64,000 nt of DNA, taken from positions 3,968,001 through 4,032,000 of the forward strand of contig CM000154.2 of the NCBI GenBank assembly GCA_000004695.1, read 5' to 3'. The position numbers were made by a program, and so were the translations under genes. The DNA comes from Dictyostelium discoideum (Eukaryota). Positions within the stretch are counted from its first letter, which is position 1; each line of letters starts with the position of its first letter. The notes below the pieces were generated by a model that searched no databases, was not told the origin of the DNA, and worked only from the letters and a program-made list of their open reading frames with translations. Positions 15,670 to 44,887 of the stretch are shown here, piece by piece.

Positions 15670-18235
15670 ATGATGATTAGTGATACAGAAAATCAACCAT
15701 TATCACCAAATAAAAATTCAAGTGGTAATAGTGGTAGAAATGATTTAATTATTAAACTTGTATTTCCACCATCATCATCTATAAGAAGTAAATTTATGTT
15801 TGTTCAAGAGAATCAAAAAGTTAGTGACATAGTAGATTATGCAACTCAATTAGCAGGTTTAAACCCTGGTTATAGTTTACAATTATCAGCATCACCAACA
15901 ACAGGTAGACCTCAATGGTTAGATGATGATCAATTATTAATAAGTTATTCAATTCCAACTTCTGTATGTTATATTATTATATTTATATACACATATACAT
16001 ATATCATAATAATAATAATAATAATTATTATTATCTCACAATTTATTAACATATATGCTGAATGAATATATAATATATATATATATATAGAGTGAAATTA
16101 AAATTAAAAGAAAACCAGGTATTAAAAGAAGAAATACACTTTCAACTATTAAACCAATTAAAGAGGGTAAAGTTCAAAAATTAACATCAATTACAAAGAT
16201 TTGGACAACTCGTTATCTAAGATTATATTCAATGAGATTAGCTCATTCTTCAAATGAAAATGATTCAAGTGCTGATCATATTCAATTTGCTGATATAACA
16301 AATGTTGATAAAGAAGTTAATAGAAAATATACTTTTGTAATTTATTGTCAAAATAATAGTAATACCACAAATACAACAACAACATCATCATCATCAACAA
16401 CGACGGCAACAGTGGGTAGTGGTAATGCTGGATTATCGCAAAGTCAAACAGTTTCAAGTTTTCAAAATTTAAGTGCAAGTACCAGTGGTACCAATTTATT
16501 TGCAGAGAGTAAAAAAGAAAAAGAATATGTTTTTAGATGTATAAATCAAAGAGAAGCTGAAGATTGGATCACTTCAATTCGTTCAATGTTAAGATCATCA
16601 AGACCTGATCTTTTATTACCACCTTTAACACCATTTTTATCTGTAAATAATAATACAAAGAATAATAATAATAATAATAATAGTAATTTAATATTACCAC
16701 CATCACCTTCACCATCAAATCAATTATCTTTAAATAATAATAATAATAGTAATAGTAATAATAATAATAATATATGGACTTCACCAACATTACCAAGTTC
16801 AATGCCACCACCAACAACGCCAATAATATCATTAAATCAAAGTGTAACACCAACAAATGAAAAGAATAGTAGTAGTGCTACTACTATTGATAGAGAAATA
16901 ACACCATCACAAACACCAACTAAACAAAGATCACTCTCCTTTTCATTTTCAAAAATTGGTGGTAATAAAAGAAAAGAATTACCACCACCATTTATACAAA
17001 ATCAATCATCATCATCAACATCATCATCACCTTCATCAACAAGTTCTACATCATCATCATCAACACCACCACCACCACCTACACAATCTTTATCAGAAAG
17101 AAATAATCAATTGGAGGAAGAGATAAAAAGATTAAATGAAGTATTAAATAGGGATACAAAATCTAAAGTAGAACTTGAAAAGAAGTATCAAAAGATTAAA
17201 GCGAAAATGGCGATTTTAAAGAAACAAAGATCAAGATCACTCTCTACTCCTGCAACACCAGAAGTTCCAAGAAAAGATAAATCTTCTTTTATTCCAACAT
17301 TTTTAATTGGTGGTAGTAGAGTTAAAGATAAAGATAAAGATTTACAACAACAACAACAGCAACAACAACAACAATCACAAAATGCTACAGCAACAACAAC
17401 ATCAAATACACAAGTTTCACATAAACGTCATTCATCAAGTTCTCAATCATTTAATTTAAATAATTTAAATAATGGAAGTTCATATTCAAATAAAGGAATA
17501 ATGATGGATGATGATAATACAGATAATGATATAACCAGTAGTGAAATGTTTACAGGTAGTGTATTTGATGATGCTGATATTTCAGATTTTGAAAAGGATA
17601 AAGAGATCAAAGATTTGAAAGATCAATTGGTTAGAATTAAAGAAAAGATACAATTAGATTTAAATGAAAAAACTAAAGTTGAAACTTCTTTTAAATTATT
17701 GGAAAAAGAATTATTCACCCAAAAGAAATTGGATGAAAAGAGAGAAAGAGAAATACTTGTAAATGAACAAAGACAAGATGATCAATTAGATTCTATGGCT
17801 GAATTAGCTTCACGTCTAAAGAAAACTTTATTCGATTTGAAAGAAAAGTTAGAAAACGAACAACAACAACAAGAAGATGAAGAAGAAGAAGATGAAGAAA
17901 ATGAATATATTGATGTTGAGGATGGTCATGATGATGATACTAATAATAATATTAGTAATATCAATCATGATGATAGTTATCAAAATGAAAATCAATATAA
18001 TATCAATGGTAAACATAATAATAGTAGTAATAATAATAATAATAATAAAGAACATACTATCAATAATGAAAATGAAGAAGACGATGAAGAGTTAGATGTA
18101 GATTATGGTGATATAGGTGATGACATTGAAGATTATGATGATGATAAAAATGAATCTTATATTGAGAGTGGTAATATTACGACTGCATCAATAAAAGAAG
18201 ATATTGATTATCAGGATCTTGAATCAACTATATAA
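15670..18235 (+). CDS. PH-domain and coiled-coil protein with ubiquitin-like N-terminus and long poly-N/S/Q tracts, 2 exons: join(15670..15963,16091..18235)
   Basis: Exon 1 ends ...SIPTS at a GTATGT donor, then a TATATAG acceptor. The PH domain is KEGKVQKLTSITKIWTTRYLRLYSMRLAHS...KYTFVIYCQ...EKEYVFRCINQREAEDWITSIRSML. The coiled coil includes LEEEIKRLNEVLNRDTKSKVELEKKYQKIKAKMAILKK. The C-terminus is acidic. Confidence 0.65.
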
Positions 18236-18377
18236 TTATTAAAAAATAATAATAATAATAATAATAAAATTTATTTATTTAATTATTTATTTATTTACTA
18301 TATATTTATTTATTTATCATTTTATTGACTAATTTGTTTTTATTTTTATTAATTTGTTTTTATTAATTTATTTGTTT

Positions 18378-18965
18378 GCTTGTTTTTTTTTTTTTTTTTT
18401 CTAAATAATATTTAAAGAAGATTAATTAATTCGGCCACATTCTTTAAAAAAACACCAATATAAACGAAGAGGTTGATATAATTGATTATTACATCTTAAA
18501 ATTGAGTGTCGTCTTAAATTCTGTCTTTGGAAAGTTTGGATAATTTTTTAACCTATTTTTTTATAAGGATTATCCATTAAAGGAAATAAACAAAAATTAA
18601 TAGTTTTATTTTGAAATTTCAAGATAAAAATTAGTTTTTCTTCTTTGATTTAAATTTTAAATAATTATAGTGTTGTTATTGTTAATATTATGTTTTTTTT
18701 TTTTAAAAAAAATATCCAATTTTAAAAATATTAATTAGTATTTAAAATTAAAGAAATTAAAGAAATAAATCAAATATTAAAATTGGTTATTTAGATGAAA
18801 AGGTGGAAGGAGACCCTGTTTGGAAACACTGTTTCAGGAGTAAAAGTACCACGTACGGGTATATACTTTTCATGATAGTTTCTTATATTATCTGTTTAAA
18901 TCATTTGAAAGAGTTAATTTTAAAAACTTTTTCTTTTGATTTTTTATATTCTAGAGTTTGTATCA
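18378..18965 (-). mobile_element. 5'-truncated poly(A)-terminated non-LTR retroelement fragment (TRE3-like) downstream of tRNA-Ala
   Basis: About 540 bp of non-genic composition (lower A+T, no homopolymers) begins roughly 100 bp downstream of the minus-strand tRNA-Ala 3' end. It ends in a T22 run on the plus strand (18378..18400), which is poly(A) on the element strand. Position and orientation match TRE3-family tRNA-downstream integration. Confidence 0.4.
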
Positions 18966-19020
18966 TATAAAGTAGACCCTTTTTCTAATCTTCATGTTTC
19001 CTTATCTTTTTAAAATTTAA

Positions 19021-19037
19021 GAGTCGAACCTGCGATC
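19021..19037 (-). promoter_or_regulatory. External B-box (ex-B) downstream of tRNA-Ala
   Basis: The minus-strand sequence is GATCGCAGGTTCGACTC, about 31 nt beyond the tRNA 3' end. It has the same extended sequence and spacing as the ex-B box behind tRNA-Asp at 37573..37589. Dictyostelium tRNA genes characteristically carry an extra pol III B-box 20-40 bp downstream. Confidence 0.65.
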
Positions 19038-19061
19038 TTGAAACTCTCGCGAGGGAAAATT

Positions 19062-19157
19062 TGGAGAAGAAGGGTATCGATCCCTTTACCTTATGGAAAT
19101 CTGATTATCGTTGCTGTTTATGCAAACCATACGCTCTACCATATGAGCTACATCCCC
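19062..19157 (-). tRNA. tRNA-Ala(UGC) with a 23-nt intron
   Basis: The minus-strand read is GGGGATG TA GCTC ATATGGTA GAGC G TATGG TTTGCAT [aaacagcaacgataatcagattt] CCATA AGGTA AAGGG ATCGATA CCCTT CTTCTCC A. The G3:U70 pair is the Ala identity element. The anticodon loop TTTGCAT gives UGC. The anticodon stem TATGG/CCATA re-forms only once the 23-nt insert is removed. The T-arm GGGATCGATACCC is canonical. Confidence 0.75.
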
Positions 19158-35689: not shown

Positions 35690-37430
35690 CATCAAAAGGA
35701 AATATTCGATTATTGCCATATCTCGATTATTCAATATTTTTTTTTTTTTTTTTGAATTGGATAACGCAATTATTATTTGCTTCTCCTTGAGATGCTAGAT
35801 CTCATTTTATTTTATTTTTTTTTTTTTTTTTACAGGGTCTCTAAAAGAGGGGTTAGTTTACTTTTTTTTTTTTTTTTTTTTTTTTGTTTCGAATTTTGAA
35901 TTGTATTATTACTTTTGATTAAAACATCTTTTTTGTCCAAACTTTTTTCTAAATCTTTTTTTATTTTATCGTCTGGTTCGTGATTGATGTTTATGACGTA
36001 TTTGAATTGTTTTTTTTTTAATTGAGTTTTATCCACAATTTCGCTTATTTTTTGTAGGCATTTGTGTTGCTTAATATTTGTGGTGTTGTTTGTGATTTTC
36101 ATTTTATTTTCTTTCTATTTTTTATATTTAGACAAAAAAGATGTTTTAATCAAAAGTAATAATACATTCAAAATTCTCACAGACAGTATTAGTACAGTAA
36201 TCTATTTTGTAAATATGTTCGATGCAGAATTAAAAGGACAATTTATAACCACTCTAAGACCAAAAAATATGTATACGGATTTCGATTGGTATAAATCACT
36301 CACAGAAATAGAATGGGTAATAGAAAATGAAGGATGTAAACTAATTAAATCTGAAATTAAAGGCGAAACTCTAATTATCAAAACAGTGAAAAGAGTCGTA
36401 GAAGAATATGACACTATCATTGAACTAGACAATCTAACATTAATTGGTCACTCCAACAAAGGATGGAGAGATCAAACCTCATTACCAGAAAATCAAGAAG
36501 AAAACAAAAATAAAAAACAATCAGATGAACAACAACCAAAATCTACATCAGAACAAATACCAAAACAAGGAAAAAGAACAATCATTATCCCACCAATCAC
36601 CTCCTCATCTAATGATAAAACATTTATGGCCCTAGATGATACAGCTCAAAAGGTAATAGATGCATCACTAGAAAACGTAGATGAACTAACAAGAATAGAG
36701 AATGAGATCAATACCCAATCGATAAAAAATCAAGAAATTAAAACAAAATCAGAAAAACCTATTGAACCACCATCTCCATACAATACACCAATAAAACAAC
36801 ACGGCGAAACAAAGAGACTAACAACGGAAGAAAAACTTAGAGAGGTAAATGATATCTTCGACTTCACCAGCCCAAACACTGATGCAATAAGAAAAATAGA
36901 ATTCCCACTTTCAATCCCTTCAAATCAATGGTTCTTCTCCTCTCCAATAAAACATATCATGAGTTTCAGCCCAACCTATGGTACACCATCGAAAATTATC
37001 GATTCACCAAGTAAATTGTTAAACACACCAAAAAACAAACAACAAGACAAAACAAACAGGACCAACAAAACACCAGTCAAACCAAAATTGGGTGAATATG
37101 GACAAAAAAGCATAAAAACAAAAATGGATGAAGATATAGACAACTTCAACAAGGAAATTCTAAAACAAATCAGTAAATCAAAAAACCCCACAAACACACA
37201 AGACCAACAACACAACGAACAAAGTAAAGATCAGTTAGAAGACAAAATAAACCAGAAACTTCAAAAGGTAGATAAAAATCTACCCCAAATAAAACTATAA
37301 AGAAAAACACAATAAGAATAGGTGTTTGGAACGTCCAAGGATCCAACACCATCCAATCTGCCAGCATAATAAACACCGTATTAGACAACAACAAGCTGGA
37401 CGCAGCACTTCTAACTGAAACAAATAAAAC
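35690..37430 (+). mobile_element. TRE5-type (tRNA-upstream) non-LTR retrotransposon, 3'-truncated: 5' modules, intact ORF1 (36215..37300) and the first ~43 codons of ORF2 (37300..37430)
   Basis: ORF1 (MFDAELKGQFITTLRPKNMYTDFDWYKSLTEIEW...QKLQKVDKNLPQIKL) is a hydrophilic, basic protein of ~361 aa. The composition is lower in A+T than host genes. Directly after its stop comes the ORF2 start KNTIRIGVWNVQGSNTIQSASIINTVLDNNKLDAALLTETNK, the AP-endonuclease opening motif of L1-like elements (xxWNxxGxx...LQETH). The element stops about 48 bp before tRNA-Asp, the hallmark TRE5 integration distance. A 31-bp inverted repeat lies in the 5' region (35908..35940 against 36130..36160). Confidence 0.6.
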
Positions 37431-37477: not shown

Positions 37478-37549
37478 TCCTTGTTGGTCTAGTGGTGAGG
37501 ATTTTCGCCTGTCACGCGAAAGGCCCGGGTTCAATTCCCGGACAGGGAG
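37478..37549 (+). tRNA. tRNA-Asp(GUC)
   Basis: TCCTTGTTGGTCTAGTGGTGAGGATTTTCGCCTGTCACGCGAAAGGCCCGGGTTCAATTCCCGGACAGGGAG is near-identical in architecture to eukaryotic tRNA-Asp-GTC. The anticodon loop is CTGTCAC. A T6 pol III terminator follows, and an ex-B box AATCGCAGGTTCGACTC sits at 37573..37589. Confidence 0.9.
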
Positions 37550-37572: not shown

Positions 37573-37589
37573 AATCGCAGGTTCGACTC
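37573..37589 (+). promoter_or_regulatory. External B-box (ex-B) downstream of tRNA-Asp
   Basis: The sequence AATCGCAGGTTCGACTC sits just beyond the tRNA's T6 terminator. It has the same extended sequence and spacing as the ex-B box behind tRNA-Ala at 19021..19037. Confidence 0.65.
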
Positions 37590-37639
37590 TTGTTTAAGAC
37601 TATATTGATAATAATAAATAAAGGAAAAAAAAACCGTAC

Positions 37640-39407
37640 CGCGATCAAGAGGATACAAGATACACGTGAAAAGTAATTCATCCTTTTCTATCTTTAATCT
37701 CGGTCAATTTTAACCAATCTTTCAAAAAAAATCACCAATCCACCACGATCTACAGATCTAACTTACCAAATCGCCGATTCAAAGGAATCCCATCGAGATG
37801 AATTCCTACGCAGACGCGGCTAAAATGGCCAACCCCTCCACCCATATGGACGAGGCATCGGAGAACTTCATTAAGGAATTCTCCACAAAAACAGCAGAGA
37901 TAAAGGAGACCTACCCCAAACTATCAATAGGCCTCAAAGACATCTCCAAATACTGCGAGACCATATTGAACATGACTGCGCTCTCAACCTATGAGAAGAA
38001 CAACGGATTCTACCCAATTACTCGAATTCCCCAAAATGGATCTCAAGGGGTTAGAAGAAATGNNNNNNNNNNNNNNNNNNNNNNNNNNNNNNNNNNNNNN
38101 NNNNNNNNNNNNNNNNNNNNNNNNNNNNNNNNNNNNNNNNNNNNNNNNNNNNNNNNNNNNNNTTTACAAATGCATAAATCTGCAAATAATTCAATATACA
38201 TAATAAGTTGGATGGATCAAATCATCAACAAATCAATCTCTTCTCCATACCTTATAAAAATCAAAAAAGAATGGGAAAATTATGCAACTCAAATTGGACA
38301 TCTAAAAGATAAAGTTCAAATCCTACAACCAATATTAATAAAAAATCAAACCTCTCAAACATTAAACACAAATAATATTCCACTACCACCAACACTCAAA
38401 GAAATCTACTCGACAATACTCAACAATCACCAATGTAAATCAAAAGACTATATTGGCAAGAAATATTCAGATCTACTTCTTACTTCGCACCAACAATCAA
38501 TACAACTATTACGGAAATACACATACCACCAACTATTTGTCAAAATTCAAAAATTAAAAGATCCATAAGGCCGTGATACAATGCAAAGATTCCATGCTAG
38601 ATGTTTTCCGATTAATCATCTACACAACAAAGTTTGCCCCATTTGCAACAATGAAATGAATAATGATCCCTATGGTCATTTGTTTTTCAATTGTCAGCAC
38701 ACAATCAACTTCATAAACCACGACAAATTAAAATATTTTATATATAAAAATTGCAATGGAAACAAAAACTGGTCACTAACAAAAAACCAAACAATAAAAT
38801 TATTCACACTCATTTATAAACCACAAACAAACAACAAAGCATTTAAACCAGATCCAACTATCAATATTAATTTTCATTTTGCAGAAAACGCACAATATAA
38901 AAAATACAGGTTCAACTAGAATTATATAAACACAAATCTTGATCTAGTCAGAACACATGCATATTAGAACATAATCTCATTTGTTATTCACCAAATATGG
39001 ATATGGTTATGCAAATCATTATTTGGCATCAATATAACTCAATCAATTGACAATTGGAACAACTAAATAAACAACACAACACTAGATTATGATATATTAA
39101 AATCAAAATGACACAAGCTAATAAGATTGGAATATTCAAGAACATTATCAAACTTTAACCAATACTCAATTAAAAACAACCTCACAAAAACTCAAAAAGA
39201 AACCCAATGGTCTGAAACCATCAAAAAATTTAAAAAAGAATGGAGCATAAACACAAATGAACCAATTCCAACAATTACACCACCAATTAATTATTAATTA
39301 CCTAATCTAAAATAACATACCATTTTAAATTCACAAAAACTAAAAAACCTAAAATAAATAAATAAAAATAACATACTAATTGTATACTACAATAGTTTAT
39401 TTATATC

Positions 39408-39434
<27 letters not shown>
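37640..39434 (+). mobile_element. TRE3-type (tRNA-downstream) non-LTR retrotransposon with a 100-N assembly gap (38063..38162), ending in A28
   Basis: Begins about 90 bp after the tRNA-Asp 3' end. Composition is unlike host genes (roughly 60% A+T, CG dinucleotides present). The 5' ORF MNSYADAAKMANPSTHMDEASENFIKEFSTKTAEIKETYPKL... is interrupted by the N-gap. Past the gap there is a Cys/His-rich ORF MQRFHARCFPINHLHNKVCPICNNEMNNDPYGHLFFNCQH, typical of a non-LTR ORF2 C-terminal zinc knuckle. An untranslated 3' region follows, then poly(A) at 39407..39434. Confidence 0.55.
38063..38162. other. Assembly gap (100 N) inside the TRE3-like element
   Basis: A run of exactly 100 N. A conventional gap placeholder of this size usually means the true length is unknown. 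Confidence 0.95.
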
Positions 39435-39439
<5 letters not shown>

Positions 39440-40027: not shown

Positions 40028-40104
<77 letters not shown>

Positions 40105-40115
40105 TTAAAATAAAT

Positions 40116-43078
40116 TTAAAGGAAGAATAATTTATCAGATAATTGAGGCGCAGCATCAGCGAAAACTGTTCTACCAATTAAAAATGCCATTTTGTGTGCA
40201 AATTGACAAGTTGCTGGAACACGAACTATAAATTTTAAATTTTAAAGTATTAATATATATATATCAAAATAAAGATTATTTATATTATTTAAATTTAATA
40301 TTAAAATATTAATAATTACCAGATTTTTCAAAGTTGAAATAAAGATGACACATTTGGAAAGTAAATAATTGAAATAAATCAGCAGGCATTTTTTGTTCAT
40401 CCAATAAAACGTGATAATGAGTTGGATTGACAGAACCATTGTTAGTTACTTGAGAGACTAAAAAGAAATCATACCAATTTGGATGGGTAATTTTTGAGTC
40501 AACCAAAGTACCAGCTGGAGGATTACCAATTGGATCAGCAGTAAATAAACGTGCATTTGTATTCTTTTTGACAATGACATACATTAACTTTGGTTTTATA
40601 CCCCAAGAAGATGGTGTTTCAGCAAAACCTTTTTTCATTGCAGCAATTTCAGATCTATTGACAAGATCTAACATACCATCACCAACACCATCACGATAAA
40701 CTATAACCAATTCTGGTAAACAATTATTGAAACTAAAATATTTTGACATTGCTTCTTTAGTTGCTTCTTCAAGAGAATCAATGATTTCTTTACCAGGACG
40801 CTTTTGAACAAAAGATCTTGAGAAATACTTTTGAAATTTATCATCGATAGTTGCAACGAATCCAACTACTGAATGACCTCTCATATCAGAGTTATGACCA
40901 ACATCGATACCAATGATCATTGTTTTCTTTGGAATGACACCATTGAATATTTGTTGATTGAGACCCCATGGTGCATAACCTAACTTTGCAATTACTTGTT
41001 GTTTTAATTTATTGGTTACTGATCTACCTTTATAAAAAGTCCTTGGGAAAATACATTGAGTTAAAACTTTAAATTGAACCAATGATTTTCTCTTTATCTC
41101 TTTATAGATTTCTGGTTGATTTTGTGGAATTAACATTAAAAAGAATTGAATACCATGTGTTTTAATTGCATTCTCCATGATATTAGAGTATTGAATTGGT
41201 CTTTTATCGCGTGGGTCTGTATAACAAATTGTTGTTGGTTGTGACATTCCAGTTTCATTTATGAAATTATAAAGATTGGTTTGGCAATCTCTTGTTCTCT
41301 CATATTCATCACGATCAACAACAAATGCCCATTTAATATTATTCAATTGACGTTTATTATCATTTGGTAAATTCTTTGGTGCACTTAAAACATAACCATC
41401 AACTTTTAAAGCTGGTTGATATGTAATTCCCCATGGTTCTAATGATTTTGAAACTTTTGGATTATTATTAATATCTGAAATAAAATTACTCAATGTTTGA
41501 TATCTTTGACTTGGATCAAAATTTGAATGTTTTGCTAATTCAGCCATAAGTTTAAAATTTTTACGCATCTAAATAATAGTATTTATATTAATATGTTTAA
41601 ATTAATTAATAAGAATAAAAAATAAAAAGAACAAACTTACATGATCACTTAATCCAGTTAAAAATGTTAATTCTGGAATTAAAAAGATAGTTTGTTTAAT
41701 ACCTCTGAATTTAACTTCAGATTTTAATAATGGTTGACGATAATCTGTAATTTTATGATTTGGATAATTTCTTTGATAATATTGTAAAAATGTTGTTGTA
41801 CCATCCATTTTATCATTAACTCCACTTGACCAAGAAATATTAGAGATACGATAGGTTTTATTATTATAACGAGTTAATACAATTGAATTTATAATTTCAT
41901 CAAAACATCTATCTTTGTCATATCTAAGGTATTTAATTCTATCTAATACAGTTTCAGATCTAACAACTTTTGAACTTGTATCTGCTAATAACATTGTACC
42001 AGATTCTGTTGAAACTACAGATGTACTAAAACCTTTCCAAACTTCAAGTAAATAATCTTCAAATTTAATTTTATTTATTGGTGAATAGTAATTTCTACCA
42101 ATAAGTGAAAATCCCATTTTTCTCATATTCTATATTTATAATAAAAAAAAAAAAAAATAAAAAATTATTAATTATTAAATTTAAAAGAAATAAAAAATAA
42201 AAAAACAAAAAAAATAAACTTACATTTTTTGTAATAATATTAAAAAATTGAGAATTAACAGATGATTTATCCCTATGGTTAACTTCTTTTACTTTTCTAA
42301 TAAATATTTGAACACCATCAATTGATTGTGAATTAATATTGATATTAATCGGAGAATATAAAATTGAATCACCATCATAGAAATAAAATTCTTTTGATAT
42401 GTTATTTAATGAAAGTAATTCTCTAATTAATTTACGTCTCTTGTCAAAAGTAACTTGTGGTGGATTAAAATCAATACGAAATTCTAGTGATTTCCTATCT
42501 GAAATAACAATTGGAAAGAAATTTGAAATTAAAGAAATTTGTTTACCTTGAACAGTTCTTGATTTTGCTGTAACAATTGCAACATTTTCAATGTCAGAAT
42601 CTTTAACCATATCTCTTCTTGAAATTCTTGGAACTAATAGATTTGTATTTGTTGTATTTGTTGTTGTAGTTGTTGTAGTTGTTGTTGTTGTTGTTGTTTC
42701 AGGTGTTTGAGGTTGTGTGATTGGTTTTACTTCTTGAAATTGTTCTTCAAGTGGGATACTGTTATTTTGTTTTCCCCAAGCATTTTGAGTTTGTCTTGGT
42801 TGGAAATATTGTTGTGGTTGTTGTGGTTGTTGTAGTTGTTGTTTTTGTTGTTGTGGTTGTTGTGGTTGTTGTGGTTGTTGTGGTTGTTGTTTTTGTTGTT
42901 GTTTTTGTTGTTGTTTTTTTTGTTGTGGTTGTTGTGGTTGTTGTTTTTGTTGTTGTTGCGGTGGTTGTTGTTGATAATTATTATTATTGGTTCTTTGTTT
43001 CAATGGTGATTGACTTCTATCAATTTCTTGATGAGATTTTGGTTCACCATTGAATCCTTTTTGTTTTTTTGGGATCAT
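40116..43078 (-). CDS. Argonaute/Piwi-family protein (PAZ + PIWI), 4 exons: complement(join(40116..40225,40320..41568,41641..42129,42224..43078)), ~900 aa, poly-Q/poly-T N-terminus
   Basis: PAZ region ...ISNISWSSGVNDKMDGTTTFLQYYQRNYPNHKITDYRQPLLKSEV. PIWI domain with the catalytic residues ...MIIGIDVGHNS...LPELVIVYRDGVGDGMLDLV...NPTHYHVLLDEQ. A final 110-nt exon (GTAATT donor, TTTATAG acceptor) encodes VRVPATCQFAHKMAFLIGRTVFADAAPQLSDKLFFL*, which matches the Piwi C-terminus [21 protein letters not shown]...NRLYYL. All junctions conserve phase and the exon lengths sum to a multiple of 3. Confidence 0.8.
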
Positions 43079-43705
43079 TTTAATTTGGAAATATTAAAAT
43101 ATTAATTAATGAAAATATTATGTATTTGTTTAAAAGATAAATAGGTATTTAAAAAATTTATATTGTTATAGCAAAAAAAAAAAAAAAAAAAAAAAATAAA
43201 ATTAAAATATTATTTTAATTAAAAAAAAAAAAAAAATGGGTTAGGAATTTGTGAGAAAAAAATAATAAATAAATAAAAAGAAAATATTATTTTAATTAAA
43301 AAAAAAAAACAAAAATACAAAATAAAATAAAATTTAAATTAAAAATAAAAAAATAAATAAAAAAAAAAAATGTGAAAAGATTTAACCACTTAAAAAAAAA
43401 ATTTCCAAAAAAATATCTTGTTTGACAACATTAATTTTAAAAAAAAAAAAATAATAATAATTCCAAGCCCAAAATGCTTAAAAGATTAAGTTTGTAAAAT
43501 ATCTTCTAAAACCATTAAAAAAATAAGGATTTGATTAATTTTTTTTAAAAAAAAAAATTTTAAATTTAAACAAGTTATTATTTTTGTTTCCAAAACTGAT
43601 GATATTTTAAAAAAAGATTTTTTTTTTTTTTTTTTATTATTTGATTATTTATATTTTTTTTTTTTTTTTTTTTATAAATTTTTATTTATATTATTACAAA
43701 ATTAA

Positions 43706-44887
43706 TTATGAATTAATTTTTTGAATACTACTTGAATCGATATCAATATTAGAATTATTAATATTATCATTTTTTGGATATTTACCTTCAACACCCATTT
43801 TATACATTTCATAATTTTTTAATTTAATTTGATCATAATGATATGTAATACATTCATGTGCTTGAGTATCAAGCCAACCACCTTTATCTTTAATCAATAA
43901 TCTTGTAATAACTCTTGAACAAATTGCACCAACTATTGTAATCAAAACTGTAATATATGAACCAATGTCTGAAAGAATTCTAATTGCAAGTTCAAAATTT
44001 GATTCAGTTTTTTCTGTTATCACTGCAACATCATTAAAATAAATTGAATAAGATAAAGTAAATGCTCTTGCAACACTTTGTTTAATTTGCCTTGAGTTAC
44101 TAGTTGCAACAGAATTAATAAACACTTCTTTTTCATCACCAAATGTTTTTATTATTTTTTTTGATGTTCCCAATGTAAATTGTTGTGATGAATCTGAATA
44201 ATATTTATCATCTCCAAACCATACGGAAATTGGGAAAGATGGAACTCCAAGATCAAAATAACCAGCAACTACATTTATCTAAAAAATTTATTTTATAAAA
44301 TTTTCATTATTATTATTTTATTTATTATTATTTATTTTTTATTATTTTTAAAAATAAATATTTTACCTCTAAAAACTCTTTTTCTCCCAAAGCCATTTCA
44401 TCAGTTGAATAATAACCAACGAAATCTGGTGATATTAAAACAAAGGTGGAATTAATTGCATATGCACAATCAAGATCCCCAACTAGTAATTTATTATTAT
44501 TAACACAATTTACCAATTGCTCCATAACATAATTACCCTTTTCATCGTAATAATATCTATTAAAAATTACAGAATATAAAAAAAATAATGAAATTTCATA
44601 GGTATTAAAAATAACATAAAAATGAGGAGGCTATAAATTTATTAGTATTTTTTTTTTTTTTTTTTTTTAAAATAATAACAAAAAAATGATTTAAAACCCA
44701 CATTTATTTTTTCTTGATAATCTGCAGTTATTGAAACAACTCTATTTGTTATATTCCTTTCAATGATAAAGTAACAAATTACAGTAAAACTTAAAACCAA
44801 GAGAATATGTTCAAAAATTTTTATTCTATATTTTTTTAAGCTTACTTTATCATCATTTGGAATACCAAAAATTCTATTGAACACCAT
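43706..44887 (-). CDS. Hypothetical two-TM membrane protein, single-module member of a paralog family, 3 exons: complement(join(43706..44278,44367..44630,44702..44887)), ~340 aa
   Basis: N-terminal TM helix IFEHILLVLSFTVICYFII, then ERNITNRVVSITADYQEKIN with a donor at the position equivalent to the paralog's. The module ...NFELAIRILSDIGSYITVLITIVGAICSRVITRLLIKDKGGWLDTQAHECITYHYDQIKL aligns with both repeats of the gene at 45215..47500. Splice sites are weaker (GTGGGT and GTAAAA donors), so boundaries are approximate. Confidence 0.5.

Follow-up and report, generated by a model that had tools for sequence, protein, structure and literature searches.

The minus-strand locus at positions 19062-19157 is quite likely a functional nuclear tRNA-Ala(UGC) gene, with an intron in its anticodon arm and an external B box (ex-B box) behind it, and the DNA farther downstream is probably ordinary intergenic spacer that holds no trapped retrotransposon. 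The gene, the intron, the tRNA identity elements, the ex-B box and the conservation of these parts are all observed directly. The locus was studied in a window of 64 kb, which denotes the whole stretch of DNA that was analyzed; it belongs to chromosome 5 of Dictyostelium discoideum AX4, has a G+C content of 23.1% and contains a single gap of 100 N.

Genomes used for comparison

Directly left of the studied region lies the gene of a PH-domain protein, DDB_G0290337 (AX4, 100% identity), with two exons at 15670-18235, and syntenic loci were reached via this neighboring protein in three assemblies. The first (L001) is a newer AX4-like assembly that is identical at the locus; the second (L002, GCA_054859385.1) is labelled D. 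discoideum and carries a PH-domain orthologue that is 87% identical in protein; and the third (L003) is D. firmibasis. The same tRNA-Ala, in the same orientation, is found in all three. The alignable intergenic DNA of L002 at this locus is about 76% identical to that of AX4, and, despite its species label, L002 probably represents a lineage of its own or a cryptic species. In D. purpureum, the synteny is lost, and no tRNA is present within 8 kb.

Structure and identity of the tRNA-Ala(UGC) gene

A search of the window with Infernal cmscan and the Rfam model RF00005 gave two tRNAs, namely tRNA-Asp(GUC) at 37478-37549 (+), which was likewise called by ARAGORN and serves as the comparator below, and a 96-nt match at 19062-19157 (-) that scored 49.1 bits (E = 1.8e-7) against a gathering score of 29. 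The alignment of the latter contains a 25-nt insertion in the region of the anticodon loop; ARAGORN in bacterial mode, which has no intron handling, misses this gene because of its intron. On the minus strand, the gene reads as exon 1 GGGGATGTAGCTCATATGGTAGAGCGTATGGTTTGCA, intron TAAACAGCAACGATAATCAGATT and exon 2 TCCATAAGGTAAAGGGATCGATACCCTTCTTCTCCA. Exon 1 (19121-19157), as placed by the sequence and the cmscan alignment, covers tRNA positions 1-37 and ends with the anticodon UGC and A37, and exon 2 (19062-19097), as placed by the cmscan alignment and the fold, covers positions 38-73.

Excision of 23 nt after position 37 yields a cloverleaf of 73 nt with 20 pairs, a folding energy of -19.1 kcal/mol and an anticodon loop of 7 nt, in which the only mismatch is U6.U67 in the acceptor stem. 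The identity elements of tRNA-Ala are present, i.e., the anticodon UGC at 34-36, the pair G3:U70 and A73, and the isoacceptor Ala(TGC) is listed for D. discoideum in a published survey (PMC13063481). The original prediction, made from the letters of the window, of a tRNA-Ala(UGC) that can be recognized by G3:U70 and folds only when a 23-nt insert is taken out of the anticodon loop is thus confirmed by the RF00005 score and by the 20-pair cloverleaf, and the exons are identical in the relatives. The T-arm, AAGGG-AUCGAUA-CCCUU, is unusual in having A54 where T54 is the usual base. Metagenome scans with the tRNA/intron junction gave no match.

A run of four T at 19056-19059 (-), located 2 nt past the tRNA and found at the matching position in L002 and D. 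firmibasis, is the likely terminator of RNA polymerase III. On established pol III biology, RNA polymerase III would transcribe the gene from the minus strand and would stop at this T4 run 2 nt beyond its end, and the 23-nt intron would be removed from the precursor by the tRNA splicing endonuclease and a ligase.

The intron

The intron (19098-19120, minus strand) occupies the canonical 37/38 position, and its excision restores the cloverleaf; flanking T residues leave its boundary uncertain by 1 nt. When the precursor is folded with the cloverleaf stems enforced, the intron segment GCAA pairs with U33-C36 and thereby with the anticodon. In AX4 the intron measures 23 nt, and in D. firmibasis 22 nt. 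Compared with AX4, the intron of L002 differs by two substitutions, and that of D. firmibasis shows a single substitution and has lost 1 nt; no other part of the gene differs between the genomes. In these respects the gene resembles eukaryotic pre-tRNAs with 37/38 introns: the intron is short and begins one base 3' of the anticodon, part of it is complementary to the anticodon, and it evolves freely between invariant exons. It departs from the usual cases in its isotype, as alanine is not known to be among those that most often bear introns in model eukaryotes.

The external B box

External B boxes of the consensus GTTCRANYC have been reported ~41 bp behind 66% of the tRNA genes of D. discoideum (PMC3159450). 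Behind tRNA-Ala(UGC), the box that had been predicted is indeed present as GATCGCAGGTTCGACTC at 19021-19037 (-), and its core GTTCGACTC at 19021-19029 fits the consensus. As in other D. discoideum tRNA genes with an ex-B box, the core stands on the tRNA strand, ~30 nt behind the gene and past the T-run, and nothing substantive differs from those genes, given that the deviant internal box GATCGATAC is general to Dictyostelium tRNA-Ala.

The box behind the comparator tRNA-Asp, at 37573-37589 (+), reads AATCGCAGGTTCGACTC and matches the Ala box at 16 of 17 positions, so that the two are not the identical 17-mers that had been claimed; the stretch truly identical between the loci is the 18-mer ATCGCAGGTTCGACTCTT. 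Similarly, a spacing of 31 nt had been given for both loci, and the distance from the end of the tRNA to GGTTCGA is indeed 31 nt at tRNA-Ala and is 30 nt at tRNA-Asp. To account for the likeness, the original prediction had offered concerted evolution or a shared origin of the flanks. Neither proposal is supported by the wider distribution of the motif: at unrelated loci, the core GATCGCAGGTTCGA also occurs behind two Thr(AGU) genes, as GGATCGCAGGTTCGA and GATCGAAGGTTCGA, and in degenerate form behind a Val(AAC) gene, and the spacers between tRNA and ex-B box are unrelated between Ala and Asp. Recurrence behind unrelated tRNA genes, combined with unrelated spacers, indicates on sequence grounds that the shared letters represent a conserved, genome-wide consensus motif and not a shared flank. 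Among the other tRNA genes compared here, those for Ala(AGC), Tyr and Val(UAC) and one of the Thr genes have no ex-B box.

Across the genomes, the box of tRNA-Ala(UGC) is likewise conserved, with 17 of 17 positions matching AX4 in L002 and 13 of 17, GTTCGA among them, in D. firmibasis, and with an unchanged spacing in both; about half of the positions of the spacer between tRNA and box have changed in the relatives, with the box conserved beyond it. The box is presumed from the literature to be an additional binding site for TFIIIC. The T-loop AUCGAUA, present in both the UGC and the AGC isoacceptors of tRNA-Ala, places the internal B box GATCGATAC off GTTCRANYC at two positions, and the external box may therefore be of help to a gene whose internal box is non-consensus. 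This idea of compensation is weakened by tRNA-Ala(AGC), whose internal B box is equally weak and which nevertheless has no ex-B box.

TRE3 elements behind tRNA-Asp and at other loci

TRE3 elements of the families TRE3-A to TRE3-D are found 14-305 bp downstream of tRNA genes, in about 150 copies in all, of which TRE3-C and TRE3-D together make up 40 (PMC5006619). Protein searches gave two Dictyostelium TRE3 families, here called X and Y; judged by abundance (family X has 79 cluster members), X is probably TRE3-A and Y probably TRE3-B, and the two remaining families are presumably TRE3-C and TRE3-D. A downstream retroelement had been claimed for both tRNA loci, which are 18 kb apart, and for tRNA-Asp the claim stands: the 5' end of a TRE3-type element of family X begins ~84 nt after the gene, in the same orientation (37634-38062, +), and is cut by the N gap. 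For tRNA-Ala, no such element is supported, as detailed in the following section.

At 97% identity, copies of the family X 5' part occur in L006, behind a Tyr gene and in a tandem adjacent to it, and in L007, behind a Thr gene; the family has a 3' UTR of ~100 nt and a tail of 30 A. To the right of the gap, a second TRE3-type element, of family Y, is represented by its 3' part (38163-39435, +), with the zinc-finger C-terminus of ORF2, a 3' UTR of ~110 nt and a poly(A) tail of 28 A at 39408-39435; two copies in L004 match this part at 97-98% identity. Of these, one is truncated at its 5' end and is situated 65 nt behind tRNA-Val(AAC). In the newer assembly GCA_054883475.1 (L008 11849-21086 and L005 1-9507), ~13 kb stand in place of the 100-N gap at window 38063-38162 and comprise the remainder of the TRE3-X element, a gene for 343 aa, the tRNA-Ala(AGC) gene and the 5' portion of a TRE3-Y element that is full-length; therefore, the 5' end on the left and the 3' end on the right belong to two elements behind two different tRNA genes. 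At L006 2613-2695 lies a gene for tRNA-Tyr(GUA) that is interrupted by an intron of 11 nt and is reported by ARAGORN as tRNA-???; behind it comes the tandem of two full-length TRE3-X elements.

Further features surround the comparator locus. A third piece of a non-LTR element, at window 36130-37430 (+), runs toward tRNA-Asp and ends abruptly 47 bp upstream of it; it contains an ORF1 of 361-412 aa and the start (~40 codons) of an AP-endonuclease ORF2 and is the same in the newer assembly. Its distance from the tRNA is typical of TRE5, but it is 3'-truncated and has the wrong orientation for TRE5, whose 5' end is expected to face the tRNA (PMC3159450). Directly 5' of this piece, at window 35809-36129, lies a segment that recurs with 93-99% identity at L005 4785-5108 and L007 9112-9350, where it stands 250-340 bp upstream of tRNA-Ala(AGC) and tRNA-Thr genes; it may be the 5' UTR of the element. 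The retroelement cluster is adjoined by the Argonaute gene ArgoL1 (PAZ and Piwi domains) at window 40309-44173 (-), just downstream of which is a run of 73 T at window 40029-40101.

The spacer behind tRNA-Ala(UGC)

The supposed retroelement block is the stretch that separates the ex-B box from the A/T run (18401-19020, no strand assigned), and the run itself, the supposed poly(A) tail, is a homopolymer of 18 T on the plus strand (18383-18400), i.e., A18 on the tRNA strand and not the A22 that had been claimed. The ~620 bp between ex-B box and A18 would, in our reading, be ordinary AT-rich intergenic DNA shared with the sister lineage. The spacer aligns with L002 over its full length, between the PH-domain stop codon and the ex-B box, with the block collinear and the alignment unbroken through the A-run; such collinearity of AX4 and L002 would equally follow from an insertion older than their split. 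Identity to L002 is mostly 55-95% in the distal half (18236-18735), and the half proximal to the tRNA shows indels of 10-62 nt in both lineages. In D. firmibasis (L003), there is no homologue of the block. Between the PH-domain gene and tRNA-Ala(UGC), that species has a multi-exon gene at L003 7441-9911, which encodes a secreted or cell-surface-like protein with Thr-Pro repeats and has no D. discoideum counterpart at the locus; it is an ordinary gene of this kind and no retroelement.

Two islands in the distal half, at 18448-18497 and 18499-18558, stood out in the sliding identity, as they are 95-97% identical to L002, whereas the remainder of the alignable spacer half is mostly 55-80% identical. 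That these two stretches of ~50 nt form a functional non-coding element missing from the annotation is unlikely, though not negligibly so; candidates would be a small RNA or, for the upstream gene DDB_G0290337, a regulatory site or a 3' element. Marginally less credence still is given to the version that places such an element, for example a regulatory site or small RNA, downstream of tRNA-Ala. The two islands match no Rfam family and have no counterpart in D. firmibasis L003, and two genomes are informative; 18448-18558 folds stably on neither strand (z = +0.25 and -0.36), a metagenome scan with a block island gave no match, and no Dictyostelium upstream sequence element was seen in the sequence. 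The contrast with the surrounding spacer could be uneven divergence arising by chance over ~100 nt. A functional role of the islands would in any case be compatible with the main explanation of an ordinary tRNA-Ala gene followed by intergenic spacer. The G+C-richer patch of the spacer likewise gave a folding z-score near 0, and the Rfam search of the spacer found no known RNA family. A snoRNA candidate at 18832-18909, with a SNORD28 score of 22.5 bits against a gathering score of 50, was rejected, because its C box is without the terminal GA and L002 carries deletions of 18 nt and 22 nt at this position.

The claim that gave the spacer its interest was that 18401-18965 is a 5'-truncated TRE3 on the tRNA strand, ~100 bp behind tRNA-Ala and ended by poly(A). 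Position and orientation would fit TRE3 behavior, given the 14-305 bp at which these elements lie downstream of tRNA genes, and genuine 5'-truncated copies are so placed behind tRNA-Val in L004. Nevertheless, the block is like TRE3 only in its location, within the range of TRE3 insertion behind tRNA genes. In blastn, with 18236-19061 as the query and the rest of the window plus L003-L007 (containing full-length X and Y elements) as targets, the block gave only AT-rich noise against families X and Y, with 3' UTRs included, and the alignment to TRE3 3' ends that had been proposed thus found no match; the comparison covered X and Y, two of the four TRE3 families, and no LTRs of Skipper-2 or DGLT-A. 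No copy of the block exists in ~145 kb of other D. discoideum DNA (the remainder of the window plus L004-L007). A terminal 540 bp of TRE3 is about 80% ORF2 coding sequence in both families; tblastn of the block, with the C-terminal ORF2 sequence of each family as the query, gave non-collinear matches of 15 aa only, and the same test detected the X and Y ORF2 in each other at E = 6e-52 as a positive control. The longest ORF of the block on the tRNA strand is 28 aa.

Other signs of an insertion are absent or ambiguous. Between the sequence after the A-run and the interval 18700-19061, no target-site duplication of at least 9 nt was found, and, when one mismatch was allowed, an AT-only 11-mer was the sole candidate of at least 11 nt. 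The A18 run at the distal end of the block is in the place of a poly(A) tail, but the 64-kb window contains 71 A/T runs of at least 18, and this one, shared with L002, is of doubtful diagnostic value. The "foreign composition" that had been ascribed to the block is weak: its G+C of 20.5% (18401-18965) does exceed the 7-14.5% of neighboring intergenic DNA, if slightly, but it is below the window mean, and on the tRNA strand the block has A 0.41 and T 0.38, which is T-rich and wrong for the TRE3 sense strand, since the 3' ends of X and Y have T 0.27. Moreover, L002 shows neither an empty site nor a junction. The TRE3 reading is therefore improbable, with the exclusion of the presumed TRE3-C and TRE3-D from the families compared counting in its favor and the lack of X or Y similarity at DNA and protein level, of an ORF remnant and of a target-site duplication counting against it; that the block is a degenerate fragment of an element outside families X and Y is held to the same small chance. 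Ordinary intergenic DNA remains the preferred reading of the spacer. On chromosome 5, 18 of 34 tRNA genes bear a TRE (PMC5006619 Table S2). As the spacer is not a trapped retrotransposon, tRNA-Ala(UGC) is most likely one of the unoccupied tRNA genes.

Conservation and functional status of the gene

Between AX4, L002 and D. firmibasis, the exons agree at 73 of 73 positions, whereas the intron varies and the flanks are strongly diverged, a pattern of purifying selection on the mature tRNA-Ala(UGC) sequence. The tRNA-Ala(AGC) gene at L005 5354-5426 also has the U6.U67 mismatch and the T-loop AUCGAUA, and the mismatch and odd T-arm are therefore traits of the family and not signs of decay. A54 and A60 of both isoacceptors recall eukaryotic initiator tRNAs. 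That the gene is a decaying pseudogene, as the acceptor-stem mismatch, A54 in place of T54 and the insert in the anticodon loop might suggest, is rejected as extremely improbable, because its exons stay identical in three diverged genomes while intron and flanks change, its terminator and ex-B box are conserved, and its oddities recur in tRNA-Ala(AGC).

Significance

The arrangement of a tRNA-Ala(UGC) gene with an ex-B box is an already known, textbook kind of Dictyostelium feature, and the finding matters little beyond the quality of annotation. For annotation, a poly(A/T) run together with a mild shift in composition is no evidence of a retroelement in a genome of 77% A+T, and tRNA-Ala(UGC) is to be counted among the roughly 40% of tRNA genes without a TRE. 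At the same time, the comparison of the three genomes provides a clean small case in which selection acts on the exons and the ex-B box of a tRNA gene and not on its intron or spacer.
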